DNA from: Dehalococcoidia bacterium
GTDB lineage: Bacteria > Chloroflexota > Dehalococcoidia > UBA6926
Length of the DNA: 64,000 bases
NCBI GenBank assembly: GCA_965220565.1
Contig: CBDCQG010000001.1
Location: 691,473-755,472 of the forward strand
Direction of reading: 5' to 3'
In this document: positions 22,104 to 56,064 of the stretch, one piece after another
How positions within the stretch are numbered: position 1 is the stretch's first letter
Layout of the letters: every line of letters begins with the position of its first letter
Program-made: the position numbers and the translations under genes
Notes under the pieces: model-generated
The model's database searches: none
What the model saw: the letters and a program-made list of their open reading frames with translations, nothing else
Told to the model about the DNA's origin: nothing

Positions 22104-22230
22104 GGATCGCTGCTCCCCACCTTAATCCGCCGCTTTGTGCTTCGTAAATGTTAGCACACTGTGCCAAGTTCGGCGTCGCCTCCCTTTCCTTGCCCCCCGT
22201 TTATGCGGCCGCTACCCTAATTCCGAGACG

Positions 22231-31160: not shown

Positions 31161-32072
31161 CTATGTCCGCGAGAGGCTTTGGACGTATTCCCGCACTGAC
31201 GCGGCGCACTCCTCAGGTCTCTCGAAGATCATGAAGTGGGAAGCTTCGGGCATGAAATCGTAGTTGATGCTGAGGATGTCGCTGAGGTCCATCGTCGGCA
31301 GATACGAGTAGGGCAGAGTGGGGTCGGCTCCCACCACCTTGACCGGACACACGATCTTGTCAAAGTCCACGGACACGGCGAAAACACCGGCATACTCAAC
31401 AACCTGCGCCTCATACTCGCGGGGGCACCGAAGTTCAAAGCCCTGTCCGTCGGCGGACTCGCCAAGAGTGGTCTCGGCCACGAGGGATGCGATTCCCGGG
31501 ACGACATTCTTGAATGTCGGCATAAACGGCAGCACGTCCGCAAAATCGGAACGCGTCTTGTATCGCTCAGTGCGCGTCCTGGTCAGATTGGCGGCGCGAG
31601 TCGCGGCAACCTCAAATTCTTCGTAGGACACACCCGGCCTGCAGACTGGCGGGTCGAACAGGTAGAGGCCGGATAGTCCATCCCCTCTTTGAGCGGATAG
31701 CAGGGCGACCAGCGCCGAGATGGAGTGGAAAACGCCAAAAGTAGGCTTGTCTCCATACTCCTCACGGATCGCGTCCAGCACCCGATCGTAATCACGGATG
31801 AACGTTGGGAGGTTGTGATTTGCAATGTCGCCCACGCTGTTCCAGCCATGATTTCTCAGGTCGTAGATGATGATGTCAAAGTCGTCCAGCAGGTTTGACC
31901 AGAACGGATAGTACAGGTCGATGGCCAGGCCGTTGCCATGGCACAGAATGAGTCGCGGCCCCTGGGGGTTGCCATGGCGTCTCAGCCGGATGACTGTGTT
32001 CTCATCGACCGTCACGTCATGGACGGACGTCGGCTCAGGAACCTGCCAGACAGGCTGGGGCGTTTCGGTCAC
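31161..32072 (-). CDS. Alpha/beta hydrolase (candidate chain-release thioesterase/hydrolase of the PKS operon)
   Basis: It has an HGNG oxyanion region and a GxSxG-like nucleophile elbow (VFHSISALV). 303 aa. It overlaps the PPTase gene by 4 nt. Confidence 0.65.
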   Translation of the reverse strand: MTETPQPVWQVPEPTSVHDVTVDENTVIRLRRHGNPQGPRLILCHGNGLAIDLYYPFWSNLLDDFDIIIYDLRNHGWNSVGDIANHNLPTFIRDYDRVLDAIREEYGDKPTFGVFHSISALVALLSAQRGDGLSGLYLFDPPVCRPGVSYEEFEVAATRAANLTRTRTERYKTRSDFADVLPFMPTFKNVVPGIASLVAETTLGESADGQGFELRCPREYEAQVVEYAGVFAVSVDFDKIVCPVKVVGADPTLPYSYLPTMDLSDILSINYDFMPEASHFMIFERPEECAASVREYVQSLSRT

Positions 32073-32866
32073 GCGAGCGCGTCCTCAATCCGGGACGACG
32101 GCACCGCTTCAATGGCGAGCGCGCCGACGAAATCGCCGGCGCTGAACCTGTGCAGCCGCCAGCACACATCCGGGAACTCCGGCAGTCGGACCTGGCCGGT
32201 GACTGCGCCTCCGCGCATGGCGGCCGGTGTTTCTATGCACTGCAGGTTCGCGGAGAGACCGATGCCGGTGGCCTTGATGATTGCCTCCTTGAGGGTCCAT
32301 ATCTCAAAGAATGCTCGTGCGTCAAAGTCTCTGTCCGTGCTTGAAACCGCAGCCTGCTCCTTCGTACTGAAAGTCGATTCGATGATTGCATCAAATCGGA
32401 ATTCCTGGTTGATCTCTTCGATATCGATGCCAACCTGGTGATCCGGCGAAATGGCTAGGACGCCATGGTCGCCGCTATGACTCACATTAAAGTGGAGCGG
32501 TGCGGGGACCCCGTCGACGTATGCCCGCGGCTTGCCTCGTTCCACCCAGCCAAACTCAAGCTCCTCATTGTCGCAGTTGAGAGTGTCGCAGAGAACCGCT
32601 CGCAGCGCGGCGCGGCTGAGCGCAAAACGCCGCCTCGGAGCCCCGGGGTGATAGCGTGTCCATCGTTCGCGTTCCCAGTCGTTCAGGAACTGCAAAGCCC
32701 CGGACTCTCGCGCCGCGTCCGGCGACAGATCGACATGAGTAACATCGACGCCGTCAAACTGCGCGAAGCAAGACCACCACTGATTGGCTGTGTTGGTGCC
32801 CATCGCTTCAATTGTATGCGGATAATTGCGATTCGGACTAATTGACGCCAAGAGGGAGCAGCCCAT
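32069..32866 (-). CDS. Sfp-type 4'-phosphopantetheinyl transferase
   Basis: It has the FNVSHSGDHGVLAIS and GIDIEEI motifs. 265 aa as called, so the start is uncertain. Confidence 0.75.
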   Translation of the reverse strand: MGCSLLASISPNRNYPHTIEAMGTNTANQWWSCFAQFDGVDVTHVDLSPDAARESGALQFLNDWERERWTRYHPGAPRRRFALSRAALRAVLCDTLNCDNEELEFGWVERGKPRAYVDGVPAPLHFNVSHSGDHGVLAISPDHQVGIDIEEINQEFRFDAIIESTFSTKEQAAVSSTDRDFDARAFFEIWTLKEAIIKATGIGLSANLQCIETPAAMRGGAVTGQVRLPEFPDVCWRLHRFSAGDFVGALAIEAVPSSRIEDALA

Positions 32867-33240: not shown

Positions 33241-36200
33241 TTATCGTTTTACGGCTTTCTTCTCCACCCAGAACCGTCGACGCTGGAACGGGTAGCCGGG
33301 CAGCCTGATCTTTCGTCGTTCCTCCCCGGTGAATAGCCTGCTGAAGTCCACGTCATGCCCCGCCTCATAGGCCCGGGCCATGGCGTCCACCGTGCCAGAA
33401 TCCGTGTCGCCTGTGCTATCCACTGCCGCTGACTCGCTATCCCGGGTACCCGTTTCCTGTCCGGTGTCACCGGACGGAGAACCGGCATCCACAAGGCGTT
33501 CGAGGCCGCTCCGCAGCTCGTCTTGGTCTCTGAAAATCACGCACGCACGATGTGTAAAGTGACTTCGGCCGATGGACGCCGTCCACGCCATGTCTGCGAG
33601 CATGTCCGCAGTTGAGGCGCCGTCTTGGCCGCCATTGTCCAGCCACTCCAGGTAACTCGCTGCGAGGTCGCTCAGCGCGGCAGGATTCTTTGCCGAAAGG
33701 GGCAGAAGGCGTGCCGGCGGCTTTGTGGTCGCTTGCAGGTCGTCGGGGTTCAAACCGTTCTCAGCCGTGTAGCCTTCCACAATGACGTGCGCATTCGCGC
33801 CCGTCATGCCAAAGGTATTGATCCCGGCAATAGGGGCACGCGCGCCGTTGCCCGGCCACTCCTCCGCGTCCAGGGCAATCTGCAAAGGCATCTTCTTCCA
33901 ATCAATCTCCGGGCTTGGCGTGCTGAAATGGAGATGCCTGGGGATGAGATTGCGATTCATGGACAGCACGACCTTGATGAGGCTGGCCATGCCGGAGGCC
34001 GCTTCAAGGTGACCCACGTTCGTCTTGACTGATCCAAGGGTCAGCGGTTGGTCGCCGGGCCTGTCCTTCCCGTACACGTTTGCAATGGCATTCGCCTCAA
34101 TCGAATCGCCAAGTGGCGTCCCGGTCCCGTGAGCCTCAAGGTAATCAACGTCGGACGCAGAGATGCCGGACCTCTCCAGCGCCTCTCGCATAACCTTTTC
34201 CTGCGCCACGCCATTGGGGCTCGTGAAACTGAATCCCGCGCCATTCTGGTTGACTGCGGAACCCCGTACGACGCCCCAGATGCGATCCCCGTCTCTCTCC
34301 GCGTCGCCAAGCCGCTTGAGTATGACGAAACCGCAACCCTCGCCGCGCACGTAACCGTCGCCGGACGCGTCGAAGCTCGCCGTCTTGCCGCTCAGAGACA
34401 GCACGCCCAATTCCGCAAGGAACGTTGACGTTGACTGCGACAGCGCGATGTTCACGCCTCCCGCCAGGGCAAGATCAACCTCTCCGCGCTGCAGGGAGAC
34501 CACGCCCTGGTGCACTGCGGCGAGCGATGACGTGCAGGCAAGGTCGATCGGCACGGCAGGCCCTTGCAGCCCGAACGTGAACGCGATCCGGCCGACGGCC
34601 ATGCTTGGAATGGTTCCAAAGATGTCCTGGCCGCCGTTCATGGCAAGCACACTGCGGTACTCGCTGCCGCTGATGCCGGCATAGACGCCGGTTTGGCTTC
34701 CGCGCAATGCGTCCGGGTCGATCCCCGCATCCTCCAGCGCCTGCCACGCTGTTTCGAGGAGTAGGCGCTGCTGCGGGTCCATGGTGCGGGCCTCGATAGG
34801 CGCAATGCGGAAGAATCGGGCGTCGAATTCGTCAATATGATCCAGGAACGCGCCAAGACGCTCATAGGTGTTCTGCGCGGCGGGATCCCCAAAAACGCCC
34901 CTGTAGTCGCCGCCGTCCGTGCGCCCGTCCGTAACGGCGGACTCGCCGTTCTCAAGCAGACGCCAGAAGGCATCGAGGTTCTCTGACCCCGGGAAACGAC
35001 AGGCCATGCCGACGATGGCGATCGCATCGTCACCCGGACGCGGGCGCGGAGGCGACTCCGGCGTCCGCTCGTCTGCGGCGGCAACAGTTGTCGTGCTGCC
35101 GGCAGCCGCCCCCGGTTCACCGACTTCCTCGGCCAGATAAACTGCCAGCCGCGTGATGCTTGGGTAGTCAAAGACCACGGTGTTGGGCGCGACATAGAGA
35201 CCTTTGAGAGCGCTGTTGATGTTGTTCCTCAAAGCCACCGCCATGAGTGAGTCCATGCCAAGATCGGAGAACTCTGCTCCCGGGTTTGGTTGGGAGGGCA
35301 TGCGCATGATCGCCTGCAATTCATGCTGCAGAAACTCGGTAAACACGCTTTCGCGCTGCTCCAACGGCACGCCGCTGAGGCGGGCAGGCAAGTCATCCAT
35401 GGAGTCACCCGCCGAGGCAGAATCAGACTCGTCGGCAGCCGTGAATCTCTGCAGCATCGCCGGCGGATTCTGCATGTTTGACCGTATTGATTCCCAGTCG
35501 ATGGCGACGGCAACCGAATTGGTCCAGTCCTGCTTGATCAGGAACTCCAGCGTTTCAATGCCGCGTTCCGGCGTGATCCACCGGGAGCCTCTCTCTGCAA
35601 GCAGCTCGCCGATCCTCTCCCGCTGCTCCTCTGCCTCGCCAACCTCCGACCATGCGCCCCACGCGATCGCCTGGCCGGTCAGCCCCAGAGCCCGGCGATG
35701 TCGAACCAACTGGTCAAGGAATGTGTTGGCCGCGGCGTGATTCGACTGCCCCGGGTTCCCGAGGATTCCCGCCGCGCTTGAGAAAAGCACAAAGAGATCG
35801 AGGTCTCGATCCATCGTGGCGCGATGCAGATGCCATGCGCCCAAAACCTTTGGCCGGAGAATCTGCTCGAATCGCTCCCACGTTTGATTGCCGACCACGC
35901 CGTCCGAAAGCACACCAACGCTATGGATGACACCCGCGAGCGGCGGCAGTGATTGGTCGATACGCGTGAGCATTGCGTCGATTGCAGTGCTGTCCGTCAC
36001 GTCTGCAATCTCAACCTGTACGGTGACGCCGCGGGCGCGCAACTCGTCTATCGCATCCTGCGCTTCCGGGTCAGGATCACGCCGGCCGTTGAGCACGATT
36101 GCTCCTGCGCCCTTGTCCGCGAGCCAGCGCGCGACGGTGATGCCAATTCCGCCCAGTCCGCCGGTGATGAGGTATGTGCCGTCTTCTCGCAGGCGTTCAG

Positions 36201-39200
36201 TCTGGAGAGGAGAGTTGGCCAGCGCGATCTTGCCGATGTGCCGGGTATCGCGCATGTACGTGATTGCAGCCGGTGCCTCAGACAATGACCAGCGGGTGTG
36301 CGGGATGGGGGCGAGTGTGCCTGCCTCCATGTCCCGCAGCACCGTCTTCAGTGCCGCGCCGGGTATTTCCGGCTCTTCTCTCTTCAGCCGATCGAGCATG
36401 ATGATGTGGTAATCGACGTCGGGACGCTGTTCGGCCATCTCCTCTTCGGTCAGGATGCCCTCGCGGGCCAACTCGATGAAGCGGCCATTCTGCGCCAGGC
36501 AGGACAGGCTGGCGTCGATGAATCCCTCGCCGGTCAGGCTGTTGAGTACGACGTCGACGCCTTTGCCGCCGGTGTCGCGGAGTATCTCTTCCGCAAACTC
36601 TGTCGAGCGGCTGTTGTAGACGTGCGTGATTCCGAGTGACCTGAGGTACGGCTGCTTGCCGATGCTTGCCGTCGTATAGATCTCCGCGCCTACAGCCTTC
36701 GCCATCTCGATGGCTGCCAGACCCACGCCCCCGGAACCCGCGTGGATGAGCACCGTGTCGCCGGCCTGTAGACGCGCGAGGTCATAGGAAAGGGCGACGG
36801 TCACGAATGCGGTTGGTGCGGAGCCAAGACCCGTCTTCGATATGTTGGGCGGGGCGGAAGCGACAAGTGCCTCCTTGGTGATGATCTCCGGCCCAAACGT
36901 GCTGAACCCGATCCCGGCGACGCGATCCCCAACGGAGACGGAAGAAACGCCATCTCCGATTTCAATGATCTTGCCGACAAATTCCAGTCCGAGGTTGTCT
37001 TCACGTTCGATGCCAATGCTGATGAGCACGTCACGGAAATTGACGCCCACGGCCTCCATTGCGACACGAACCTCATGTGTTTCCAGTTCACGATGTGACT
37101 CAGGCTGCGGATGGACACGGCCGGGGTCGCCTGTTTCATCCGGCATAAGGAACCATTGGCCTTCGTCGGGCAGGGTGAGCCTTTCCGGTACATCGTCTGT
37201 GCGCGCCAACCGGGCAACCAGTCGATAGCCTGATCGGAGCGCGATGTGATTTTCGCCATCGGGCCGCAGCAGTTCATCAACAAGGTCGGCCAGGCGCGGG
37301 CTGTCGCCATCCAGGTCAACAACCTTGGGCTGAAGATCCGCAAGTTCCCTGATGATGACTCTGCCAAATCCCCAGAGGATCGCGCCGGCGGGCTGCGTGA
37401 ACTGCTCCCGTCGGGTGTCTTGCGCGCCTCGTGTCACAAGCCAGGCGCCGCTCTTTGGTTCCGAATTAGAGTCCAGGAGGCCCTGAACCATGGCCAGCGC
37501 GCTCGAACCAACTCGCCGGATGTCATCAGCGAGCCCGTCGGCGTCGATGTCTGACCCGTTCCCGCTCGTGGCAGCCAGGTGGACAACTCCTCGCAGCGGA
37601 ACGTCCTCTGGCAGACTCGCAAAGATCGATCCCCACGCCTCGCGGTCTCCCCTGTCAACGGCTATGCGTGAAACACCGTCAACGGAGCCATCCTCATGTG
37701 GCGCGCCTGCGCCTTTCTCGGTCACAACCAGGACGAGTTGGCTCCGAGACGCCAGTTCAGCCGCCAACTCGTCGGCCATGCCGTCGTCATCCGCGGCGAG
37801 CACCCAGGAACCCGGCTGCTCGACGATCTCGGCAGGGGCAGCGGCGATGATGACGGCGCGGTCAGGACGCTCCGACGAGTCACTCGTCCTGAGGCCGAGA
37901 ACCTGCGGGTCCTCAAAGGCCGTGTCCAGCAGCGCCTGTTCCCAGACGTCAGCGCCCGCAACACCGTGATTGGGCCGATAATGATCGGCAAATCGCCACC
38001 ACCCGTCCAGCGTTCCGAATGTCACGTCCTGCCATCCCTGGCCCTGGATCGACTCAATCGCGACGAGGTGGCCGGACGGCGCGAGAAGTGTCAGACAGTT
38101 CTGCAGGGTCTCGCTGAGAGAGATGGTGTCATGGAGCACGTTGGAGGCGATGACAAGGTCATAGCCGTGAGCGTCAAATCCCTGCTCGGCGGGATCGAGT
38201 TCGATGTTGAGAGGCATGTACGTTATCGCGCCGTCGGCAGTCCCAAATTGTGACTCCGCCTCCGCGAAGAATCCGGCGGAGATATCCGTGTACACGTACT
38301 CAAACCGGCCCTCAGGAAGCTGCGGCAGCACGGACATCGTGGCTGAGCCCGTGCCCGCTCCCACCTCGACAATGCGCAGTGTTCGCGTCTCGGGCAGATT
38401 CTCCAGCAGCGCGGCAATTGTGTCGCGAAGCATGTTGTTGACTGCGCGGGATGCGGGCGTTCGTATGAAGATGTCGGCGGGTGTAGGATCGCCGCTCCCG
38501 AACAACACCGTCAGCGGATCAGCCTGCCCGCGCAGAATATCCGCCAACTCTCCCGCAGCTCGACGGCACAGCGCCACCTCGATGGAGCCGTGAGGATAAC
38601 GCTCCAGCATCTCTGCGGCGAAGGCGTCCGGGTCAGTCGGCAGTTCACCCGGCAGAGAATCCTCTGGGCCAACCAGAACGTGGAAAGCGTCACCGGATTC
38701 TTGCAGGACGCCCGCCCGCGCAAGCAGCTCAAGGATTCTCCTGAACAGCTTGCTGTGCTCGTCCGTGACGCCCAATTCCCGCCTCAGGGTTTCCGGCTCG
38801 ATAACCGCGCCTGCCGTCTGTTGCCAGCCGAGCTTGGTCAGGGTGTCAAGCGCGAATGACCACGAAAGTCGTTCAAGATCGCGCAAAAGCGCGGTTCGAT
38901 CGCTCCAGTCCACGCCTTCCTGCGACAGATACTCCGCGAACGCCGGTGTAGTGGCCTGGATGGAGGACGGTTCCGGCAGGAAATCGGCGGGCTGCACGGG
39001 AGGCAACGGGCAGTCCTCCCAGACGATGTCGTACAGGAGGTCCTGCACGCTCTCCTCCGTCGAGAGCACGCTATCGCGGCTTGCCCGCTTAGCTGTAAAT
39101 CCTGTGATTCCTCCGAGCCGCTCACCTTCCGTCGAATAGATCTCAAGGTCCGCTGCGATGACCTCCGGCACAGTCCGTGCGCCGGAGGCGTCTGCCTGAT

Positions 39201-42200
39201 TGGCGGCTCTCAAGGTTGCGCGGCAGACAACCCTCTCGGGCAAGCCGCCGCTGAGCCACAATCGGTCCCATGCAAAGGGGAGATATGTCGTGCCGCTTGC
39301 CGTCTCATGCGTGGCGCGAGCCGCCGAAACGACCTGCAAGCATGCGTCAAGCAGGATGGGGTGGACGGCCAGGCCGGTGTTGCTCAGTCCCTCCGGCAAG
39401 CTGACCTCTCCGACTGCCATGCCGTTGCCCGTGAATGCCGAATCCACCGTGCGGAACAGGGGACCGAAGTCCAGGTTTGCCTCGCGCTTTGCCCGGTAGA
39501 ACTCTGAAATATCAAGCGATTCCAGGCCGGCCTTCAGGTCGTCAATGGTCACGCGCTCCGCAGCATCAGTGTTATCTGTTGCCGACGACAGCGTGCCCCG
39601 CGCGTGCAGAGTCCACGATTCCTCGCCGCTTCCCTTGCTGTAGATTTCAAACTCGCGAGCGCCTGAGTCGTCCGGAGCCTGCACCATGATTTGCACGGCG
39701 CGCGCACTATCGTCAGGCGAACTCTCCTCATCGGCCTCGCTGAACAGCAGCGGCGCCTGCATCTGCATGTCGTCGATGACGACTCCGCCGGACTCCTCCG
39801 CCCGGAACGCCTCCACAGCCATGACGCCATAGAGGGCCCCTGGCGCGATAACCCGGCCATACACACGGTGGTCGCTCAGCCAGGCGGGATCGTCTGGCAA
39901 CAACTCAGTCTCGAAATAAATCTCTCCGCGCGGCGATTCATGGCGCGTTCCGAGCAGTGGATGATCCGTTGAGGCTCTCTGCCGACGAGGCTCTTCGACC
40001 CAATGGCGATACCGCTGGAACGGATACTCCGGTACGGGAACCCGTCGCCGCGTCTCACCCGCATAGAGGTCACGGAAATCGATAGAAAGCCCGGCCTCGT
40101 ATGCAGCCTTAACCGCGGAGATGAAACCGCGAGTCTGGTCGATTGGCGGCTCGGTTTCATCGTGCGGCGGCCTGACCATGCTGGCAATAACCGGGGGGTC
40201 CTTGGCCGGAGCGCCCGGCGGCCAGCACATGGAGACAATCGCCCCAATGACTGCGCCCGGCCCGATCTCGATGACAAAATCGACTCCAAGTTCTGCCAGC
40301 GATTCAACGCTGGTTCGATACAGGACCTTCTCCCGTGAATGACGCATCCAATAGGCGGCATCGATGGGGACATCCGGATCAACCGGCTTGCCCGTCGCGC
40401 CGCAAATGAACTCGATCTGCGGTGCTCTAGGCTCCTTGACAATTTCACGGACTCTCTCCCCGAGCGGTTCGAGCATCGGCTCCAGCAGACTGCTATGGAA
40501 TGCCGGGCTGGGCGGCATACGCCTAACCCGAACTTCCTTAGCCTCGAATTTCTCGAGGACTGCCTCAACATCCGGTTCAGGCCCGCTGACGACGTGGTTG
40601 ATGCCGTTGTCAACGGCAATCGTCAGCCGGTTGTCGCCGGAGACCTGCTGTTGTTCCGCGATGGCCTCCTGCACGGCGGCCTCTGGAGCGAATACCACGC
40701 CCATTGCCGCACCAAGCGGGAGTCCGCTCATCAACTCTCCGCGCGCAGCAGTGAGGCGGATACCCTCTTCCAGGGTGAACACGCCGGCTGCTTGCGCCGC
40801 CGCGTATTCTCCGAGGCTGTGACCGGCGACCACGGCGGGCGTGACGCCGATGCTCTTCCAGAGGGCAGTGAGCGCGCACTCCACCGCGTAGATAGTGGGC
40901 ATGGCCCATCTCGAATCATCGAGGTCATCTGCCTTGCCGAACATGACATCGAGCAGGGAGACCCCGCGCTCTTTTTTGATGATGCGATCACAGCGGTCGA
41001 GCACGTCTCGCGCAACAGGCTCCGTCTCGTAGAGCGCTTGCGCCATACCCACCCACTGGCTGCCCTGTCCGGTGTAGACAAATCCGATCCTGGCGGGGCT
41101 GCCGACGGGAGATTGAGGAGTCGATTCAATAAGGTTGCTGAGGCCATCCCTCAGTGAGGCGGCTTCGCGGAACGGGATAGCGGCCCGGTAACGGAAATGG
41201 CTGCGGCCGATGCTTGCGGTCCAGGACATATCAGATAGGGCAGGGTCGGATGCCGCAGTCTCCGGAGGCGGGCCTCCCGATGTTTCGTCCAGCGCATTGA
41301 GGTAACGCTCTGCCAGTTCTTGCAGGCTCTCCGGCGACCGTGCGGAAAGCGGCAGCAATCGTGTCGGGCGCTGTGTGACATCCGCAGTGTCGTCAGAAAG
41401 TTGGGTCTCCACCTCGACAGCGGCGCCCACTGGCCACATCGTTGCTGCGCGTGATGCCGGTGCGCTGGCGGGCGCGCCGTACCCCTCGACGATGATGTGC
41501 GCGTTCGTGCCCGACCATCCGAAACCGCTGACACCGGCGCGTGGCGGCCTGCCATCAACTTTCGGCCACTCGGTTGCCTCGGTCGGCACGCGCAGATTGG
41601 CGTTCTCCCAGTCGATCGCCGTTGTGGGGTTCTCAAAATTCAGGTGCTTGGGGATGACGCCGCGCCGCATTCCCAGCACGACCTTCATGACGCCCGCGGC
41701 TCCCGACGCAGGTTCAAGGTGCCCGAAATTCGTCTTGACGGAGCCGATGAACATTGGTTGATCGGCCGGTCGCTGATTTCCATATGCGGCGGTGGCTGCG
41801 CTCAACTCCGCCGGGTCGCCCACCGGCGTGGCGGTTCCGTGCGCCTCCAGGTAGTCCACGTCCACCGGTGTAAGGCCGGCCGAGGACAGCGCATCGCGGA
41901 TGACATTCTCTTGTGACGACGCGCTCGGCACGGTGATGCCCTGGCTCGCGCCGTCCTGGTTGATGGCGGAGCCGCGGATCACACCCCAGATGCGGTCGCC
42001 GTCCCGCTCGGCGTCGCTCAGGCGCTTGAGAACAAGAACCCCGCAGCCCTCGCCGCGGAGGTAGCCGTCCGCGGCCTCGTCAAAGGTGCGGCACACGCCG
42101 TTCGGCGACAGCATCCCTGCTTGCCTGCGCAGATTCATGACCCTCGCGGAAAGGATGGCGTTGACGCCTCCGGCCAGGGCCAGGTTCGCCTCTCCGCGAT

Positions 42201-42813
42201 TCAGGGCGATTACAGCCTGGTGCATGGCAACCAGGGACGATGAGCACGCTGTATCTATGGAAATCGCGGGTCCTTCAAGTCCCAGCGCGTATGACACGCG
42301 GCCAATGGCGGTGTTGAGACTGCTTCCGCTGGCCGCATAGAGGCTGGTGGCAGGATCGTCCGCTTCAATGGACGCGATGGCCGCATACCGGTATTCGGCG
42401 TTGCTTATGCCGCCATAGACGCCGGTGCGCGTTCCCCTGAGACTCTCCGGATCGATGCCCGCGTCTTCAAGGGCACGCCAGCTGGTTTCGAGCATCAGGC
42501 GCTGCTGCGGGTCCAGCAGCTGCGCCTCTACCGGTGAGATTCTGAAGAATTCCGCATCGAACTTGTCGATATCCTCAATGAAAGCCGCGTAGTGCGTGGT
42601 GTCGCTCTGCGTCGGTGGAAGTTCCAGGAACTGACCCATGCGGCCGGGGCTGCCGGAGCCGATCATGCCCTCCGTCCGCACCATCGTCCCGGAGGCCAGC
42701 AAACGCCAGTAAGCGTCGTAGTCCTCGGCTCCGGGAAAGCGGCATGCCATGCCGATGATAGCGATGGGTTCGTTTGCTGCCATACCGCCTCCGAGTTTCA
42801 GGTGGGCTGACAT
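33241..42813 (-). CDS. Type I highly reducing polyketide synthase, 3190 aa: KS-AT-DH-cMT-(psiKR)-ER-KR-ACP-KS(AT-less)
   Basis: KS1 has DTACSSSL / EAHGTAT / NFGHLE. The AT has GHSLGE. The DH has HRVYGRVIAPGA. The C-MT has VEVGAGTGS. The ER has LIHAGSGGVGLAAIEMA. The KR has ITGGLGGIGITVARWL. The ACP has DLGMDSLMAV. KS2 has DLACTSSL / EAHGTGT / NVGHLE. After KS2 come the KS-AT linker and the post-AT YPFQRRRFW linker, but no AT core. Confidence 0.9.
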   Translation of the reverse strand: MSAHLKLGGGMAANEPIAIIGMACRFPGAEDYDAYWRLLASGTMVRTEGMIGSGSPGRMGQFLELPPTQSDTTHYAAFIEDIDKFDAEFFRISPVEAQLLDPQQRLMLETSWRALEDAGIDPESLRGTRTGVYGGISNAEYRYAAIASIEADDPATSLYAASGSSLNTAIGRVSYALGLEGPAISIDTACSSSLVAMHQAVIALNRGEANLALAGGVNAILSARVMNLRRQAGMLSPNGVCRTFDEAADGYLRGEGCGVLVLKRLSDAERDGDRIWGVIRGSAINQDGASQGITVPSASSQENVIRDALSSAGLTPVDVDYLEAHGTATPVGDPAELSAATAAYGNQRPADQPMFIGSVKTNFGHLEPASGAAGVMKVVLGMRRGVIPKHLNFENPTTAIDWENANLRVPTEATEWPKVDGRPPRAGVSGFGWSGTNAHIIVEGYGAPASAPASRAATMWPVGAAVEVETQLSDDTADVTQRPTRLLPLSARSPESLQELAERYLNALDETSGGPPPETAASDPALSDMSWTASIGRSHFRYRAAIPFREAASLRDGLSNLIESTPQSPVGSPARIGFVYTGQGSQWVGMAQALYETEPVARDVLDRCDRIIKKERGVSLLDVMFGKADDLDDSRWAMPTIYAVECALTALWKSIGVTPAVVAGHSLGEYAAAQAAGVFTLEEGIRLTAARGELMSGLPLGAAMGVVFAPEAAVQEAIAEQQQVSGDNRLTIAVDNGINHVVSGPEPDVEAVLEKFEAKEVRVRRMPPSPAFHSSLLEPMLEPLGERVREIVKEPRAPQIEFICGATGKPVDPDVPIDAAYWMRHSREKVLYRTSVESLAELGVDFVIEIGPGAVIGAIVSMCWPPGAPAKDPPVIASMVRPPHDETEPPIDQTRGFISAVKAAYEAGLSIDFRDLYAGETRRRVPVPEYPFQRYRHWVEEPRRQRASTDHPLLGTRHESPRGEIYFETELLPDDPAWLSDHRVYGRVIAPGALYGVMAVEAFRAEESGGVVIDDMQMQAPLLFSEADEESSPDDSARAVQIMVQAPDDSGAREFEIYSKGSGEESWTLHARGTLSSATDNTDAAERVTIDDLKAGLESLDISEFYRAKREANLDFGPLFRTVDSAFTGNGMAVGEVSLPEGLSNTGLAVHPILLDACLQVVSAARATHETASGTTYLPFAWDRLWLSGGLPERVVCRATLRAANQADASGARTVPEVIAADLEIYSTEGERLGGITGFTAKRASRDSVLSTEESVQDLLYDIVWEDCPLPPVQPADFLPEPSSIQATTPAFAEYLSQEGVDWSDRTALLRDLERLSWSFALDTLTKLGWQQTAGAVIEPETLRRELGVTDEHSKLFRRILELLARAGVLQESGDAFHVLVGPEDSLPGELPTDPDAFAAEMLERYPHGSIEVALCRRAAGELADILRGQADPLTVLFGSGDPTPADIFIRTPASRAVNNMLRDTIAALLENLPETRTLRIVEVGAGTGSATMSVLPQLPEGRFEYVYTDISAGFFAEAESQFGTADGAITYMPLNIELDPAEQGFDAHGYDLVIASNVLHDTISLSETLQNCLTLLAPSGHLVAIESIQGQGWQDVTFGTLDGWWRFADHYRPNHGVAGADVWEQALLDTAFEDPQVLGLRTSDSSERPDRAVIIAAAPAEIVEQPGSWVLAADDDGMADELAAELASRSQLVLVVTEKGAGAPHEDGSVDGVSRIAVDRGDREAWGSIFASLPEDVPLRGVVHLAATSGNGSDIDADGLADDIRRVGSSALAMVQGLLDSNSEPKSGAWLVTRGAQDTRREQFTQPAGAILWGFGRVIIRELADLQPKVVDLDGDSPRLADLVDELLRPDGENHIALRSGYRLVARLARTDDVPERLTLPDEGQWFLMPDETGDPGRVHPQPESHRELETHEVRVAMEAVGVNFRDVLISIGIEREDNLGLEFVGKIIEIGDGVSSVSVGDRVAGIGFSTFGPEIITKEALVASAPPNISKTGLGSAPTAFVTVALSYDLARLQAGDTVLIHAGSGGVGLAAIEMAKAVGAEIYTTASIGKQPYLRSLGITHVYNSRSTEFAEEILRDTGGKGVDVVLNSLTGEGFIDASLSCLAQNGRFIELAREGILTEEEMAEQRPDVDYHIIMLDRLKREEPEIPGAALKTVLRDMEAGTLAPIPHTRWSLSEAPAAITYMRDTRHIGKIALANSPLQTERLREDGTYLITGGLGGIGITVARWLADKGAGAIVLNGRRDPDPEAQDAIDELRARGVTVQVEIADVTDSTAIDAMLTRIDQSLPPLAGVIHSVGVLSDGVVGNQTWERFEQILRPKVLGAWHLHRATMDRDLDLFVLFSSAAGILGNPGQSNHAAANTFLDQLVRHRRALGLTGQAIAWGAWSEVGEAEEQRERIGELLAERGSRWITPERGIETLEFLIKQDWTNSVAVAIDWESIRSNMQNPPAMLQRFTAADESDSASAGDSMDDLPARLSGVPLEQRESVFTEFLQHELQAIMRMPSQPNPGAEFSDLGMDSLMAVALRNNINSALKGLYVAPNTVVFDYPSITRLAVYLAEEVGEPGAAAGSTTTVAAADERTPESPPRPRPGDDAIAIVGMACRFPGSENLDAFWRLLENGESAVTDGRTDGGDYRGVFGDPAAQNTYERLGAFLDHIDEFDARFFRIAPIEARTMDPQQRLLLETAWQALEDAGIDPDALRGSQTGVYAGISGSEYRSVLAMNGGQDIFGTIPSMAVGRIAFTFGLQGPAVPIDLACTSSLAAVHQGVVSLQRGEVDLALAGGVNIALSQSTSTFLAELGVLSLSGKTASFDASGDGYVRGEGCGFVILKRLGDAERDGDRIWGVVRGSAVNQNGAGFSFTSPNGVAQEKVMREALERSGISASDVDYLEAHGTGTPLGDSIEANAIANVYGKDRPGDQPLTLGSVKTNVGHLEAASGMASLIKVVLSMNRNLIPRHLHFSTPSPEIDWKKMPLQIALDAEEWPGNGARAPIAGINTFGMTGANAHVIVEGYTAENGLNPDDLQATTKPPARLLPLSAKNPAALSDLAASYLEWLDNGGQDGASTADMLADMAWTASIGRSHFTHRACVIFRDQDELRSGLERLVDAGSPSGDTGQETGTRDSESAAVDSTGDTDSGTVDAMARAYEAGHDVDFSRLFTGEERRKIRLPGYPFQRRRFWVEKKAVKR

Positions 42814-50406: not shown

Positions 50407-50670
50407 ATGCCGATCTATGAATTCAGGTGCGAGGAGTGTGGGCGGGACACGAGCGTGTTCACGCGCTCCGTCTCCGCGCCCATCGGCGAGCCGACCTGCC
50501 GTCACTGCGACAGCACGTCTCTGCGCCGCAAGGTCTCACGGGTTGCTGTCGTTCGCTCACGGCAGGACCTGTACCGCGACTATGACCGCCTCTCCGCGTT
50601 TGATGACGCGCCAAGCGATGATGATTACGATGGGATGGATGACGGCTACTTCGATGACGGGTACGATTAA
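50407..50670 (+). CDS. FmdB-family zinc-ribbon protein with acidic Tyr/Asp-rich tail
   Basis: MPIYEFRCEECG...CRHCDS is the FmdB CxxC...CxxC ribbon. 87 aa. Confidence 0.75.
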   Translation: MPIYEFRCEECGRDTSVFTRSVSAPIGEPTCRHCDSTSLRRKVSRVAVVRSRQDLYRDYDRLSAFDDAPSDDDYDGMDDGYFDDGYD

Positions 50671-50708: not shown

Positions 50709-51065
50709 ATGCCCATTTACGAGTACACGTGCAAGGATTGCGACAAGCGCTCCACCACCTTCTATAAGGTCATCCCGGAGGAACTGCCCACGGAGCAGGA
50801 ATGCGCCCACTGCGGTTCCACCAAGACCGAGAAGGTCATGTCCCGCGCCGCCTACGTTCGCTCAACCGCCTCTCGGCATGAGGCCTCCGGTGATCCCGAC
50901 GCCCCCGGCTACGATTACTGGCGCGACCCCTCGAACATCGGACGATGGGCAGAGAAGCGCATGGACGAGGCGGGCATTGAGATGCCCGACCGCGTCAAGG
51001 AGATGATCGGCCAGGCCCGCGAGGGCGAAGTCGACAAGATCCTCGACAAGCGCGGCCTGGACTAG
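50709..51065 (+). CDS. FmdB-family zinc-ribbon protein (paralog, longer C-terminal tail)
   Basis: MPIYEYTCKDCD...CAHCGS. 118 aa. Confidence 0.75.
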   Translation: MPIYEYTCKDCDKRSTTFYKVIPEELPTEQECAHCGSTKTEKVMSRAAYVRSTASRHEASGDPDAPGYDYWRDPSNIGRWAEKRMDEAGIEMPDRVKEMIGQAREGEVDKILDKRGLD

Positions 51066-51107: not shown

Positions 51108-51938
51108 ATGTCCTTGATCCCGCCTACATTCCTGGACAAGGTCGTCGCGCTGGGCACGCCGGACAAGGACGGAAACATACGGTACGCCGCCTCCGGCTTC
51201 TTGTACGGGCAGCCTTCAGGGAACCAGGGTCGATACTACGTTTACCTGGTCACGAATCGGCACGTTGTGAAAGGGATACGCAGCCCGCAGATACGCTTCA
51301 ATGCGCTTGCCGGGACTGCTCCGAAGATACTGCCTTTGCCTCCAAATGATGACGGACCGAACGATCACTGGATCTTTCATCCTGACCCGGATGTCGACGT
51401 TGCCGTTCTGCTGATAGACTCACTTGGTCAAGCCCTGAAAGATGTGAAGATGGCGTTCTTCACGGGAAACGTGCAGACGGAACGCCTGGAGTCCATGAAG
51501 AGCGGTTCCGTTTCAGAGGGAGACGAAGTCTATGTGCTCGGTTTCCCTCTTGGACTGGCCGGCGCTGAACAGAACTATGTGATCGTGCGGCAGGGAGTCA
51601 TCGCCCGGATTCAGGACTGCTATGAGCAGCGCTCCAAGGAATTCCTGATTGATTCGTTTGTCTTTCCGGGCAATAGCGGAGGCCCGGTCATTCTCAAGCC
51701 AACCATGTTCTCGTATGGCCAGACGCGCCCGGACCCCAAGTTGATAGGCGTTGTGGCTGCTTATCAGCCGTTCGTTGACGTCGCTCTCAGTGAGCAGACC
51801 GGAACTCCCAGGCTGATCGTCCAGGAGAACTCCGGACTTGCCACGGTGATTCCCGTCGATCTGATCCAGGAGACCGTTGAATTGGCGGCGGAACGGTATG
51901 GGATTACCCAACCATCCCCGTCCGTCATTCCCGCGTAA
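51108..51938 (+). CDS. Cytoplasmic trypsin-like (S1/Trypsin_2 type) serine peptidase, no signal peptide
   Basis: The catalytic triad context is LVTNRHVV (His), DVAVLLI (Asp) and GNSGGPV (Ser). 276 aa. It is flanked on both sides by family-A repeats. Confidence 0.65.
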   Translation: MSLIPPTFLDKVVALGTPDKDGNIRYAASGFLYGQPSGNQGRYYVYLVTNRHVVKGIRSPQIRFNALAGTAPKILPLPPNDDGPNDHWIFHPDPDVDVAVLLIDSLGQALKDVKMAFFTGNVQTERLESMKSGSVSEGDEVYVLGFPLGLAGAEQNYVIVRQGVIARIQDCYEQRSKEFLIDSFVFPGNSGGPVILKPTMFSYGQTRPDPKLIGVVAAYQPFVDVALSEQTGTPRLIVQENSGLATVIPVDLIQETVELAAERYGITQPSPSVIPA

Positions 51939-51947: not shown

Positions 51948-52104
51948 TGGCACGGATTAACTAACCCAACCCGCTACACCACCCTCCCTCCTGTATCCTT
52001 ATAGCTGAGCGTCGCTGGCACTCCCGGTGTCGCTTGCCGCGCAGTATTCACCCTGATTGCAATGGAGGCCTCGCCACGTGACCATTGAGCCGACGCTGAC
52101 TGAT

Positions 52105-53400
52105 ATGAACACGATTGTGTCGCTCGCCAAGCGGCGCGGGTTCGTGTTCCCCGCCAGCGAGATCTACGGCGGAATCGGCTCGTCGTGGGACTATGGCCCC
52201 CTCGGCGTGGAACTCAAACGCAACGTGCGGGATGCATGGTGGCGCGCGATGGTGCAGGAGCGCGATGATGTCGTCGGCCTTGACAGCGCCATCATCCAGA
52301 GTCCCCTCGTCTGGGAGGCGAGCGGCCACGTCGCTGGATTCACGGATCCGCTTATCGAGTGCCGTACCTGCCATCGCCGCTATCGCGCCGACCATATTGA
52401 GAACAAGACCTGCCCCGACTGCGGAGATGTGGACGAATTCACGGAACCGCGGCAGTTCAACCTCATGTTCAAGACGTTCCTTGGGCCCGTGGAGGAGGAC
52501 GCAGCAGTCGCTTTCCTGCGGCCGGAGACGGCGCAGGGCATCTTCACAAACTTCGACAACGTGCGGACGGCCACGCGCAAGAAGGTCCCGTTCGGTATTG
52601 CGCAAACAGGAAAATCGTTCCGAAACGAAATCACAACCGGAAACTTCATCTTCCGCACCCGTGAATTTGAACAGATGGAGATGGAGTACTTCGTCCGGCC
52701 TGAGGACGGCTTTGCATCCCTGGAATACTGGCGAAATGAGCGGATGAATTGGTACACGGACCTCGGCATCAACCCGGAGCGGCTGCGCTTCCGCCAGCAT
52801 GAGCAGGATGAACTCGCCCATTACGCCGCCGCCGTTTATGACATTGAGTACCTTTTCCCCATCGGCTGGTCGGAATTGGAGGGCATCGCCTACCGCGGCG
52901 ACTTTGACCTCCGCCAGCACCAGGACAGCTCCGGGCGCAAGCTGGAGTACTTTGATGACGAGCGGCAAGAGCGGTTCATACCCCACGTTGTGGAGCCCGC
53001 CAGCGGCGTCGATCGCTGCCTGCTCGCCTTCCTCGTTGACGGCTACACGGAAGAGGAGGTGAACGGGGAGAGTCGCACCGTGCTCAAGCTGCACCGTGAT
53101 CTTGCTCCGTACAAGATCGCCGTGCTCCCTCTCTCCCGCAACGAGAAGCTTCTGCCCAAGTCGCGGGAGGTCTATGACATCGTCCGCCGCCGCTGGATGA
53201 CCGACTATGATGATTCCCAATCCATCGGCCGCCGCTACCGCCGACAGGACGAGATCGGCACGCCGTACTGCGTCACCATCGATTTCCAGACCGTGGAAGA
53301 GGACGACGCCGTGACCGTTCGTGACCGCGACACGATGGAGCAGGTGCGCGTCCCCATCGCTGAGCTGGGCGCGCTCCTGGAGGAACGCCTTGCCCGCTAG
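52105..53400 (+). CDS. glyQS: Glycine--tRNA ligase (alpha2 dimeric class II type)
   Basis: IVSLAKRRGFVFPASEIYGG ... class II motifs and a C-terminal anticodon-binding domain. The ORF track starts at 52057. The ATG at 52105 (MNTIVSLAK) matches the family's N-termini better. Confidence 0.85.
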   Translation: MNTIVSLAKRRGFVFPASEIYGGIGSSWDYGPLGVELKRNVRDAWWRAMVQERDDVVGLDSAIIQSPLVWEASGHVAGFTDPLIECRTCHRRYRADHIENKTCPDCGDVDEFTEPRQFNLMFKTFLGPVEEDAAVAFLRPETAQGIFTNFDNVRTATRKKVPFGIAQTGKSFRNEITTGNFIFRTREFEQMEMEYFVRPEDGFASLEYWRNERMNWYTDLGINPERLRFRQHEQDELAHYAAAVYDIEYLFPIGWSELEGIAYRGDFDLRQHQDSSGRKLEYFDDERQERFIPHVVEPASGVDRCLLAFLVDGYTEEEVNGESRTVLKLHRDLAPYKIAVLPLSRNEKLLPKSREVYDIVRRRWMTDYDDSQSIGRRYRRQDEIGTPYCVTIDFQTVEEDDAVTVRDRDTMEQVRVPIAELGALLEERLAR

Positions 53401-53409
53401 ACCGATTAT

Positions 53410-53444
53410 CCCCTCTTCTGACGGGAGAGGGTTGGGGTGAGGGC
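53410..53444. repeat. Interspersed repeat, family B copy, intergenic between glyQS and the sbcD-like gene
   Basis: cccctcttctgacgggagagggttggggtgagggc. Confidence 0.65.
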
Positions 53445-53446
53445 AG

Positions 53447-55225
53447 ATGCGAATTATCCACTTTGCCGACGCGCACATCGGCGTTGAGACACACAGTCGC
53501 CCCGTTACGTCGGACGACCTTAGCGCGCTGCCTGAATCTTTCGCTCCGGGCGTCAACCGCGCCGCCACGTATACGGGGATGCCGTCCCGCCTCATTGATT
53601 CTCTGCGCGCTTTCGACGAACTCGTTGAGTTCGCCCTGACTGAACCCCGCGCCGATCTTGTCGTCTTTTCCGGTGACGCCTATCGTTCACGAGACCCTTC
53701 CCAGACCCACCAGCGGGAGTTCGCCCGCCGCGTCAGCCGCCTCGCACTCGCGGGCATCCCTGTGTTTCTCCTCACCGGCAACCATGACGTGCCCAACACG
53801 GAGGGCAGGGCGACTGCGCTGGACATCTTTGACGCGCTCGCGGTGGATAACGTGACGGTTGCCTCCCGCCCCGGTGTTCACCGCATTGAGACGGCGGCCG
53901 GCCCCGTCCAGATGCTGGCCGTCCCGTGGCTGCGGCGCAGTTCCGCCGCGGCGCGCGCTGAATTGCACGGCAAGAGCTCCGCTGAGGTCAACGAGTGGAT
54001 GCAGAGTTTCCTCAGCAATGAGATAACGCGCATGGCGGGTGAACTCGATCAAACTGTGCCGTCCATCCTGTCAGCCCACGCCACCGCCACGACGGCCACC
54101 GTCGGTCACGAACGCAGCATGATGATGGGCAACGACTACCTGCTGCTGCCCAGCGCGTTCCAGACGCATCCCGTCGACTATGCTGCCCTCGGCCACATCC
54201 ACCGCCATCAACTGGTTGCAGACGCCCCGCCCACCGTCTATCCCGGCAGTCTCCACCGCGTTGATTTCTCCGAAGAGAATGACAGCAAGGGATTCTGTGT
54301 GGTGGACATTGATCCTGCTCTGCCCCCGGGACGCCGCGTTGCCTCATGGTCGTTTCGCCCCGTCTGGGCTCGTCCGTTCAGGACGGTCAAGGTCGCCGTC
54401 CATGCAGGCGAGCAGGACGTGATGGGAACGATTACAAGCCGCCTTGCCGCCGCGGATGTGCGCGATGCCGTAGCCCGTGTGGAGATTCAGGCTCCCGCCG
54501 AACTTGCGGGCGACATCGACCGTGTCCGTATTCGAAATGTGTTGCGGCAGGCCGGAGCGCACGTCGTTTCGGGCGTCACGGTGCAGGCCGACTCGTCGGA
54601 TAGAACGCGAACGCGTCTTGACCGCGGCATGGCAATTGAGTCGCTTGAGCCTGAACAAGCCCTTAGCTTGTATATGGAAAAATCATCCGTTGCCACCGAG
54701 CGTCGCGTGGTGCTCCTGCAGGCGGCACGTGAGATTATCAACACGGATCAGATGGGGCAGGGAGCTGGCGTGGATGATGACACGGGCGTGGTAGTCCGCA
54801 TCGCCGGAGAGGCTGACATGGAAGCGATCTTCGCCCTCCGCCGCGTCGTGTTCATCGATGAACAGAATGTTGATGCCGACGAAGAATGGGACGGGCGCGA
54901 TGAGGACGCCGTCCATGCCGTGGCGCTCCTGGAGGATGAGGTTGTTGGCACTGGCCGCCTCCTAACGGACGAGGGCGAGGAAACGTGCCGCATTGGGCGC
55001 ATGGCCGTCCGGCAGGACCTCAGGCGGCACGGAATCGGAGACAGGATTCTGGCACTGCTGGAGGACGCCGCTCAGGAACGGGGTTTTGCACAGGCCCTGC
55101 TCCACGCGCAGACCTACGTCAAAGACTTTTACGCGCAGGCGGGCTACAGGGAGCAGGGCGAGATATTTCTGGAAGCCGGCATCGAGCACGTGGCCATGAC
55201 GAAGGACCTATCCGGCGCCCCGTAG
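53447..55225 (+). CDS. SbcD/Mre11-like DNA-repair exonuclease (calcineurin-like metallophosphoesterase) fused in-frame to a C-terminal GNAT N-acetyltransferase domain
   Basis: The N-terminus MRIIHFADAHIG ... GDAYRS ... LTGNHD ... GHIHRH gives the Mre11/SbcD motifs I-V. The C-terminal approximately 150 aa carry GNAT motifs (RRVVFIDEQ...VHAVALLEDEVVGTGRLL...CRIGRMAVRQDLRRHGIGDRIL). No sbcC is adjacent. Confidence 0.7.
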   Translation: MRIIHFADAHIGVETHSRPVTSDDLSALPESFAPGVNRAATYTGMPSRLIDSLRAFDELVEFALTEPRADLVVFSGDAYRSRDPSQTHQREFARRVSRLALAGIPVFLLTGNHDVPNTEGRATALDIFDALAVDNVTVASRPGVHRIETAAGPVQMLAVPWLRRSSAAARAELHGKSSAEVNEWMQSFLSNEITRMAGELDQTVPSILSAHATATTATVGHERSMMMGNDYLLLPSAFQTHPVDYAALGHIHRHQLVADAPPTVYPGSLHRVDFSEENDSKGFCVVDIDPALPPGRRVASWSFRPVWARPFRTVKVAVHAGEQDVMGTITSRLAAADVRDAVARVEIQAPAELAGDIDRVRIRNVLRQAGAHVVSGVTVQADSSDRTRTRLDRGMAIESLEPEQALSLYMEKSSVATERRVVLLQAAREIINTDQMGQGAGVDDDTGVVVRIAGEADMEAIFALRRVVFIDEQNVDADEEWDGRDEDAVHAVALLEDEVVGTGRLLTDEGEETCRIGRMAVRQDLRRHGIGDRILALLEDAAQERGFAQALLHAQTYVKDFYAQAGYREQGEIFLEAGIEHVAMTKDLSGAP

Positions 55226-55885
55226 CCACTCGGAACCGCCGTCCCACACCTCGCGTTTCCAGACCGGCGCCAGCGCTTTCACCTTCTCCACGGCCTCCCG
55301 GCACGCGTCAAAGGCTGCGCGGCGATGCGGTGAGGCCACAGCAATGACCAGTGAGGTCTCTCCGATCTCAAGCCGTCCCGTTCGGTGCCACAACGCGATG
55401 CTGCCGATGTCGAAATCGTCGAGCGTCTCGCGCCCAATCTTTCGCAGCACACCCTCAGCCATCTCCGGGTACGCCTCGTATTCAAGGAAGAGCACATGCC
55501 GCCCGAGGTTGTTGTCCCGGACGATGCCCTCAAACGTCAGTACGGCCCCATCGGTTGAGGACTTGAGGGACTCCGCGATTCTGTGGGTGTCAAGTGGCTC
55601 AGGCGTCACGCCAACCTGCACGGCCTCCGCCTCAGAGACGGCTCCTCCGCTCACGGGCGGGATCAGCGCAACTTCGTCGCCTGCGGAGATGGTGGTTGAC
55701 TGATCGACGTACTCCTGGTTGATAGCCACAACAACACCCGCGCAGCGATTCGCCAGCGCAGGATGCTGCCGCTGCGCCTCGCCTAACAGGCGTGAAACCG
55801 GCTCACCCTCGGGAATCTCAACGCTGATCTCCGAGGCGCCCACCGCCTCTCGCAGCGCTGCAAACAGTCGTACGCGAACGTCCAT
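55208..55885 (-). CDS. MoaD-MoaE fusion (molybdopterin synthase sulfur-carrier + catalytic subunit, MoaX-like)
   Basis: The MoaD part ends ...IPPVSGG and is directly followed by the MoaE domain (LTFEGIVRDNNLGRHV...). The start is at MDVRVRLF (55885) with a GGGAG RBS upstream. The ORF track's longer N-terminus is unlikely. Confidence 0.75.
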   Translation of the reverse strand: MDVRVRLFAALREAVGASEISVEIPEGEPVSRLLGEAQRQHPALANRCAGVVVAINQEYVDQSTTISAGDEVALIPPVSGGAVSEAEAVQVGVTPEPLDTHRIAESLKSSTDGAVLTFEGIVRDNNLGRHVLFLEYEAYPEMAEGVLRKIGRETLDDFDIGSIALWHRTGRLEIGETSLVIAVASPHRRAAFDACREAVEKVKALAPVWKREVWDGGSEWLRGAG

Positions 55886-56064
55886 GTGGCCATTATAGGC
55901 TCCCCGGTCACTCTTCCTAAATGCAGTAGAGAATCCGGTGATTTCATACTTGCGGCTCCGCTTGTGACGCTTGACACAAATTCGGCCAGACAGATAGACT
56001 CGCACTGTCGCGGCTGCGACCCAACGTTAACTGTTGAGGTATTGCTCTGAACAGGCTCAAGCGC

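Follow-up and report, generated by a model that had tools for sequence, protein, structure and literature searches.

A lineage-restricted fusion of an SbcD/Mre11-family nuclease with an ElaA-related GNAT domain in Dehalococcoidia

We analysed a 64-kb stretch of DNA from a Dehalococcoidia bacterium, referred to here as the window, and describe one of its genes, in which an sbcD reading frame continues into a GNAT acetyltransferase domain. The gene is a single open reading frame (ORF) with an ATG start that encodes 592 amino acids followed by a stop codon (Table 1). It is situated between glyQS upstream and a fused moaD-moaE gene downstream, the neighbours that an initial annotation of this DNA had already named. 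The moaD-moaE gene marks the downstream boundary, and the GNAT fills the slot between sbcD and moaD-moaE. The locus belongs to a conserved housekeeping block that comprises a Na/H antiporter, UPF0102, two Zn-ribbon genes, glyQS, sbcD, moaDE and the caa3 oxidase (cox) operon. This block is stable across relatives down to about 45-50% identity.

The N-terminal part of the protein is recognised by the Pfam model Metallophos (residues 1-253, 48.4 bits against a cutoff of 21.5) and by the NCBIfam subfamily model TIGR00619 'sbcd' for exonuclease subunit SbcD (residues 1-282, 135.9 bits against a cutoff of 77.65). Equivalog models for the SbcD of E. coli, Staphylococcus and Bacillus and for archaeal Mre11 match far below their cutoffs. 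By profile, the protein is a member of the SbcD family and not an equivalog of any of these enzymes. The five phosphoesterase motifs that the initial annotation had read from the translation are all present (D8-x-H10, G76-D77, G111-N-H-D114, H211 and G249-H-x-H252) and are invariant in 57 homologues.

An AlphaFold2 model was built on a 57-sequence alignment, with a mean predicted local distance difference test score (pLDDT) of 87.5. It resolves the nuclease core, the cap, a flexible segment of low confidence (residues 385-393), two helices that follow this segment (402-412 and 417-434), the linker and the GNAT. The capping domain aligns with those of T. maritima Mre11, E. coli SbcD and S. aureus SbcD. 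The best PDB matches in Foldseek are full-length Mre11/SbcD chains from Rad50/SbcC complexes (3tho_B, 3qg5_C/D, 7yzo_A and 6s6v_A), with a probability of 1.00, a target-normalised TM-score (TMt) of 0.7-0.8 and about 450 aligned columns. Alignments of this length extend past nuclease and cap into the C-terminal helices. In the model, this helix-loop-helix is equivalent to the Rad50/SbcC-binding domain (RBD) of Mre11/SbcD and would be expected to bind SbcC. The RBD-like signature consists of residues R388, P402, L406, Y409, L423 and A427 in the numbering of the fusion protein. Since the two helices correspond to the module that binds the coiled-coil base in the solved complexes, the GNAT is attached directly behind that module.

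Similar to SbcCD and to T. maritima Mre11-Rad50 (6s6v, 7yzo, 3qg5, 3tho), the window protein combines the five-motif core, the cap, the flexible segment and the C-terminal helix-loop-helix. It differs from them by the extra C-terminal GNAT and by an sbcC that is not adjacent. In contrast to SbcCD, it also carries an insertion of 30-40 residues between motifs I and II, which is missing in some relatives (P0111). As judged by its sequence, the SbcD half has intact catalytic and partner-binding modules and is predicted to be an Mn2+-dependent nuclease.

The C-terminal part is a complete GNAT domain with its acetyl-CoA motif, as the initial annotation had claimed, and is a putative acetyltransferase. 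Three Pfam models match residues 473-588, each above its cutoff: Acetyltransf_10 with 56.3 bits, Acetyltransf_1 with 49.2 bits and Acetyltransf_7 with 42.3 bits. The profile searches proposed in that annotation, with Metallophos and Acetyltransf_1, are thereby both positive. The AlphaFold2 model shows the alpha/beta topology of a GNAT, with its order of strands and helices, at residues 448-587. S. aureus SACOL1063 can be aligned with the domain over the full length of both (residues 9-145 against 9-144 of 146, E=3.6e-21). Further PDB sequence matches are 5jq4, 3efa (a putative acetyltransferase), 1q2y and 5z6n, together with E. coli ElaA and PA0115. The entry 1q2y is labelled only 'similar to hypothetical proteins', and we take it to be YjcF. 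With the proteins of the ElaA/YjcF/SACOL1063 type (5jq4, 5jph, 3efa, 1q2y, 5z6n, 1xeb) the domain shares end-to-end similarity over about 140 residues, motif A and the same Pfam models. These proteins are stand-alone and about 145-155 aa long, whereas the window GNAT is tethered to a nuclease. Motif A is kept in all aligned fused orthologues except P0025, which reads RRQQIG.

Equivalog tests of the GNAT failed, with 45.6 bits against 171 for ElaA (NF007644) and 45.9 against 68.45 for the MSMEG_0567 GNAT (TIGR04045). On these scores the domain is related to the ElaA and MSMEG_0567 GNAT families but is a different protein. With the GNAT alone as query, exhaustive HMMER searching gave 8781 representatives at E<=0.001. 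Among the best 150 of these 8781 matches most are stand-alone proteins of about 145-155 aa, the nearest of them 54% identical. Members of the same family are fused elsewhere to a pseudouridine synthase, an MFS transporter, an alpha/beta-hydrolase, DUF7931 or a second GNAT. Going by domain architecture, fusion is common in this GNAT family, and fusion to SbcD is limited to one lineage. Overexpression of ElaA is toxic and inhibits growth of E. coli (PMC6199490).

Table 1. Coordinates of the fusion gene, its domains and motifs, its neighbours, and two sbcC genes at other loci. Positions refer to the window unless a locus is given.
Feature	Position	Strand	Basis
Complete sbcD-GNAT fusion gene	53447..55225	+	ORF list, domain profiles, full-length homologues at 49-100% identity
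SbcD/Mre11 phosphoesterase (nuclease) domain, residues 1-290	53447..54316	+	TIGR00619, invariant motifs, Foldseek
Phosphoesterase motif I	53468-53476	+	motif residues invariant in 57 sequences
Phosphoesterase motif II	53672-53695	+	motif residues invariant in 57 sequences
Phosphoesterase motif III	53777-53788	+	motif residues invariant in 57 sequences
Phosphoesterase motif IV	around 54071-54085	+	motif residues invariant in 57 sequences
Phosphoesterase motif V	54191-54208	+	motif residues invariant in 57 sequences
Mre11-type capping domain, residues about 298-382	54338..54592	+	model pLDDT >90
Two-helix (helix-loop-helix) module, residues 402-434	54650..54748	+	model, Foldseek, conserved signature
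Variable disordered acidic/glycine linker with Met436, residues 435-447	54749..54787	+	model, alignment
GNAT domain of ElaA/YjcF/SACOL1063 type, residues 448-588	54788..55210	+	Pfam, PDB sequence matches, model
Acetyl-CoA motif A RRHGIG, residues 526-531	55022-55039	+	motif Q/R-x-x-G-x-G/A
glyQS (glycyl-tRNA synthetase)	52057..53400	+	Pfam tRNA-synt_2b plus HGTP_anticodon; 46 bp upstream, co-directional
Fused moaD-moaE	55208..56005	-	Pfam ThiS plus MoaE; convergent, 3' end overlaps fusion gene by 18 bp
Unlinked Chloroflexota sbcC, locus L087	6001-8667 of L087		beside dnaG-rpoD-ffh
Unlinked Chloroflexota sbcC, locus L088	6001-8124 of L088		beside dnaG-rpoD-ffh

A homologue search over 5.8 billion proteins returned about 38 protein clusters (within P0001-P0042) with the full-length two-domain architecture, at 49-100% identity. 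This answers the question of database distribution raised in the initial annotation: the architecture is found in one Dehalococcoidia group. All carriers are metagenome-assembled genomes of Chloroflexota/Dehalococcoidia of about 1.6-2.1 Mb, and the fusion is seen in short-read assemblies as well as in long-read ones, among them a circular contig of 1.96 Mb (43x coverage) that carries P0039. In databases these proteins are named only 'exonuclease subunit SbcD', and our literature search found no description of an SbcD/Mre11-GNAT fusion. By family assignment and distribution, the fusion is a lineage-restricted combination of two well-known families.

In the alignment of fused orthologues both domains are conserved and the linker varies. 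Between the window and its relative L006 (89% identity), the linker is 62% identical and the domains are about 90% identical. At the codon level, this pair has an omega of 0.073 in the nuclease and cap and of 0.060 in the GNAT. Strong purifying selection on both halves is apparent from this comparison.

The initial annotation had considered that a frameshift in assembly or sequencing might artificially join two genes. Relatives with split versions exist, one of them on a long-read contig of 3x coverage. But the in-frame fusion recurs in the roughly 38 clusters, which stem from many independent assemblies and several sequencing technologies. The linker keeps the frame with variable but homologous sequence, and the domains on either side of the junction are under strong purifying selection. 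These findings together exclude a frameshift artefact, to which we attach negligible probability. The split form was confirmed independently, so that both fused and split states are real. An interpretation of the split in locus L086 as a low-coverage error was rejected, as the same split is present in the short-read assembly of L089.

According to the initial annotation, the nuclease has no SbcC partner. This holds for the neighbourhood: ORF and profile searches detected no SbcC/Rad50-like ORF next to the gene or anywhere in the 64-kb window. We compared 80 related sbcD loci from species-representative genomes and the contexts of selected homologues, in which every ORF was searched locally within fetched flanks of at least 3 kb, usually 10 kb, per locus. 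In these flanks SbcC was found at none of the 46 unfused unlinked Chloroflexota relatives and at none of the 4 GNAT-associated (fused or split) loci. In 18 more distant relatives (<=41% identity) a long ORF adjoining sbcD matches the SbcC of the Dehalococcoidia locus L046, where the gene order is glyQS..sbcD-sbcC. These sbcC-linked loci are mainly from Anaerolineae and other Chloroflexota, with a few records labelled as other phyla. A Pfam check of 6 linked partners identified all of them as canonical SbcC (AAA_23, Rad50 zinc hook, SbcC Walker B). The more distant orthologues of the window sbcD thus share with SbcCD a canonical sbcC directly downstream. Directly upstream of sbcD, glyQS is present at 4 of 4 GNAT-associated, 16 of 46 unlinked and 1 of 18 linked loci. 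On long contigs, two sbcC genes of Chloroflexota (P0239 and P0214) are unlinked from sbcD and reside in a shared dnaG-rpoD-ffh(-)-sbcC neighbourhood.

From these gene orders, separation of sbcD and sbcC is ordinary in Chloroflexota. Given that the 46 unfused relatives likewise have no SbcC nearby, the missing neighbour is not a trait of the fusion, and the claim of a missing partner is probably wrong at the level of the genome. The helix-loop-helix signature is at least as conserved in the unlinked and fused genes as in the sbcC-linked ones, which argues that a partner is still bound. We infer that an SbcC exists in this genome.

A different reading would be that SbcC was lost and that the SbcD-like protein acts alone or with another partner on its C-terminal helices. 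In place of ATP-driven control, the GNAT would then supply regulation or targeting of a new kind. We consider this unlikely. Beyond the empty flanks of the 46 unlinked and 4 GNAT-associated loci, it is favoured by the small size of the genomes (1.6-2.1 Mb) and by a comparison of contigs. None of the 240 Chloroflexota SbcC matches listed is on any of the about 60 contigs with a window-like sbcD (about 16 of >1 Mb among the matches listed, plus further chromosome-scale loci from the genome scan), but the 240 are the best 120 for each of two queries (L046 SbcC and P0239) and end at 37-42% identity, so that a more divergent SbcC would not appear among them. The conserved partner-binding signature and the documented unlinked sbcC genes of Chloroflexota speak against a loss of SbcC. 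Furthermore, the activity of SbcD/Mre11 on blocked ends depends on SbcC/Rad50.

Several long ORFs were considered as candidate partners at other loci. Those downstream of sbcD in L026, L028 and L042 were rejected as SbcC because they are histidine kinases. Two ORFs directly downstream of sbcD, L035 6206-8488 (760 aa) and L040 11054-13516 (820 aa), have no Pfam match and no similarity to SbcC; they could be divergent partners or spurious ORFs. At L088, a metallo-beta-lactamase/RMMBL gene is located ahead of sbcC and overlaps it by 4 bp.

We tentatively favour the reading that the window protein is the SbcD nuclease subunit of an SbcCD complex carrying a tethered accessory GNAT acetyltransferase. 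Most likely, it would act as the nuclease subunit of SbcCD in processing hairpins and DNA ends that are blocked, and its sbcC would lie at another site of the genome, the usual arrangement in Chloroflexota. The linker has about 13 residues, varies in length and sequence among orthologues, and drops below a pLDDT of 50 at residues 434-444. Such a flexible tether would place the acetyl-CoA-dependent GNAT beside the SbcC head and the coiled-coil base. The target of the GNAT could be local: a lysine or N-terminus of SbcC, of SbcD or of an end-bound protein, or a small amine. Nuclease and acetyltransferase activities are predicted here, and any functional coupling of the two halves is putative.

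The comparison of related loci bears on this coupling. Among the loci searched locally, homologues of this GNAT adjoin sbcD only in the fusion clade, where three states occur: fused in the large majority, split, and absent. In the split pairs (L086, L089) a GNAT gene of 153 or 166 aa overlaps the sbcD stop codon (ATGA or TGATG). Its start coincides exactly with the '...LMTDKE...' of the fused sister P0029, from which it follows that fused and split forms are related by a single frame change. The SbcDs of the split pairs (P0034, P0035) are 65-67% identical to the window sbcD. Unfused SbcDs of 446-447 aa, from the same 90% cluster as the split form, are found on three contigs of about 1.9-2.0 Mb, which likewise speaks against a low-coverage error in L086. 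The split pairs are orthologous to the window gene and occupy the same slot between glyQS and moaDE, but yield two polypeptides from overlapping genes where the window yields one. The GNAT is absent in L001 (P0033, 71% identical) and in L090/L091 (P0058), with otherwise identical synteny, and in these relatives moaDE or moaE lies within about 20 bp downstream of the sbcD stop.

In a neighbour-joining tree of the SbcD part with bootstraps, the split forms group with the fused P0029 (100/100) and P0033 falls inside a shallow fused clade (100/100). These nested positions indicate that the fission came later, as did the loss in at least one case. P0051 and P0058 fall among the deep fused branches, a position made uncertain by their long branch. 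In one Dehalococcoidia lineage, the GNAT would thus have arisen or been inserted in the space separating sbcD from moaDE. Later it would have been split off as an overlapping gene in one sub-branch; it is absent in at least two others. By its distribution over these genomes, the GNAT is an evolutionarily separable accessory.

This history can also be read as that of an incidental fusion, a close rival that we regard as quite possible. A stand-alone ElaA-like GNAT with an unrelated job of its own, for example acetylation of amino acids or small amines, would have come to stand downstream of sbcD and been joined to it by a one-nucleotide frame change at the overlapping stop and start, with no mechanistic link to DNA repair. 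Tolerance of the fusion would rest on the long flexible linker, with which both enzymes can act independently. A number of findings support this and weigh against the tethered accessory subunit that we favour. The GNAT is separable in L086 and L089 and dispensable in L001 and L090/L091. At the ATGA/TGATG overlap, the reading frame at the 'M' of '..LMTDKE..' is all that distinguishes fused from split forms, and the nesting of split and GNAT-less forms within the fused clade, both with full bootstrap values, implies that the two parts need not be physically joined. The linker is both disordered and free of constraint. Most members of the GNAT family by far are stand-alone proteins, and the family joins many unrelated partners promiscuously. 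The nearest characterised homologue, of the SACOL1063 type, acetylates free amino acids in vitro and not proteins (PMC10267138). Gene order is conserved across the whole block in any case, including the functionally unrelated glyQS, so that adjacency alone is no proof of coupling. Against the SbcCD reading itself stands that no SbcC could be tied to a fusion-bearing genome, although a comparison with the best 120 matches per query says little on this.

An incidental fusion is opposed by the persistence of the fused state, which spans lineages 49-55% identical to one another and accounts for about 38 clusters in the clade against 5 unfused ones. The split genes remain translationally coupled. 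In addition, the neighbouring moaD-moaE fusion joins true functional partners in the same genomes, which demonstrates that fusion in this lineage can reflect function.

In a more specific form of the tethered arrangement, the GNAT would acetylate SbcC, SbcD or an end-bound protein and thereby tune or license end resection with acetyl-CoA. We rate this as rather unlikely. Bacteria would then have, built into one protein, an equivalent of the Mre11 complexes that are controlled by acetylation, and for the widespread ElaA/YjcF GNAT family the fusion would serve as a 'Rosetta-stone' hint at its function. A conceptual likeness exists to eukaryotic Mre11 complexes that interact with acetyltransferases in trans, such as MRE11-TAF1 of Arabidopsis, where an Mre11-family nuclease is paired with an acetyltransferase (PMC4949998). 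There the two are separate proteins, the substrates are histones and chromatin, and the acetyltransferase is of an unrelated lineage.

If the two halves are coupled, a large and functionally orphan GNAT family with thousands of stand-alone members would be linked to DNA-end processing, and the window protein would be a first bacterial example of an acetyltransferase built into a nuclease of the Mre11 family. Without coupling, the locus is just another neutral fusion of genes in a compact Dehalococcoidia genome. For annotation, sbcD and sbcC of Chloroflexota are routinely unlinked, with sbcD often following glyQS and sbcC seen beside dnaG-rpoD-ffh. A 'solo' sbcD in Chloroflexota should not be read as loss of the partner.

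Independent translation of the GNAT from an internal start, as suggested in the initial annotation, finds no support. An in-frame methionine, Met436 (MGQGAG, ATG at 54752), does exist within the linker. No Shine-Dalgarno-like sequence is present upstream of it; the gene's own start has GGTGAGGG. Met436 is not conserved and is replaced by V or A in orthologues that are 87% and 72% identical. Sister lineages with the split form (L086, L089) do make the GNAT as a separate polypeptide, from their overlapping gene.

The same annotation had suggested a self-regulating repair enzyme, which is a possibility, or a component of a conflict system. Nuclease-plus-modifier architectures occur in defence systems, and in an anti-phage or conflict system the nuclease would serve as effector, with the GNAT as a module for sensing, modification or immunity. 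Two other genes of the window match PADLOC candidate families (51108-51938 PDC-S45; 25194-26231 PDC-S11). The fusion protein itself, however, has no PADLOC match at E<=0.01. Its gene is part of a stable syntenic housekeeping block in which no island-like variable occurrence was seen, and its base composition equals that of the flanks, with no anomaly. It is also orthologous to canonical sbcD genes that pair with sbcC. A role in conflict is therefore unsupported and, in our estimate, very improbable.

Of the two PADLOC candidates, the one on the plus strand encodes a trypsin-like peptidase (Trypsin_2; PDC-S45, E=5.9e-31) and is located between the Zn-ribbon genes and glyQS. As the Zn-ribbon genes and glyQS are directly adjacent in L001, L086 and L090, the peptidase looks like a lineage-specific insertion. 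The other, on the minus strand, encodes 345 aa with a NucS_C-like endonuclease domain (PDC-S11, E=1.4e-61). The Zn-ribbon genes of the block (50407-50670 and 50709-51065, both plus strand) are tandem paralogous genes for small Zn_ribbon_8 (CxxC) proteins that both start with MPIYE(F/Y), and they are conserved at the same position in L001, L003 and L090.

In the gap between glyQS and the fusion gene no promoter- or terminator-like site was found, and co-transcription of the two genes is plausible. This intergenic segment (53401-53446) contains a short inverted repeat, CCCTCT..AGAGGG, with no T-run behind it. On the other side, moaD (ThiS-like) and moaE form one ORF in the window and in L001, L003 and L086, and are separate genes in L090/L091.

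Further genes of the window were noted. On the minus strand, 33241-42813 encodes a type I polyketide synthase of 3190 aa with the domain order KS-AT-DH-methyltransferase-ER-KR-ACP plus a second KS. Beyond it lie a 4'-phosphopantetheinyl transferase (32069-32866) and then an alpha/beta-hydrolase (31161-32072), both on the minus strand. This polyketide locus is sizeable for a Dehalococcoidia genome of about 1.6 Mb. The plus-strand ORF 22135-24252 (705 aa) has a tRNA (U5) methyltransferase-like domain at residues 273-447 and a Maf domain at 453-665, and may be another fusion or an over-extended ORF with a TTG start. Adjoining it, 20862-22103 (minus strand) encodes a large serine recombinase (Recombinase plus Zn_ribbon_recom), which hints at a mobile element. 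Two stretches of CoA-transferase family III are found in the 827-aa product of 26333-28816 (minus strand), apparently the result of a tandem duplication or fusion.

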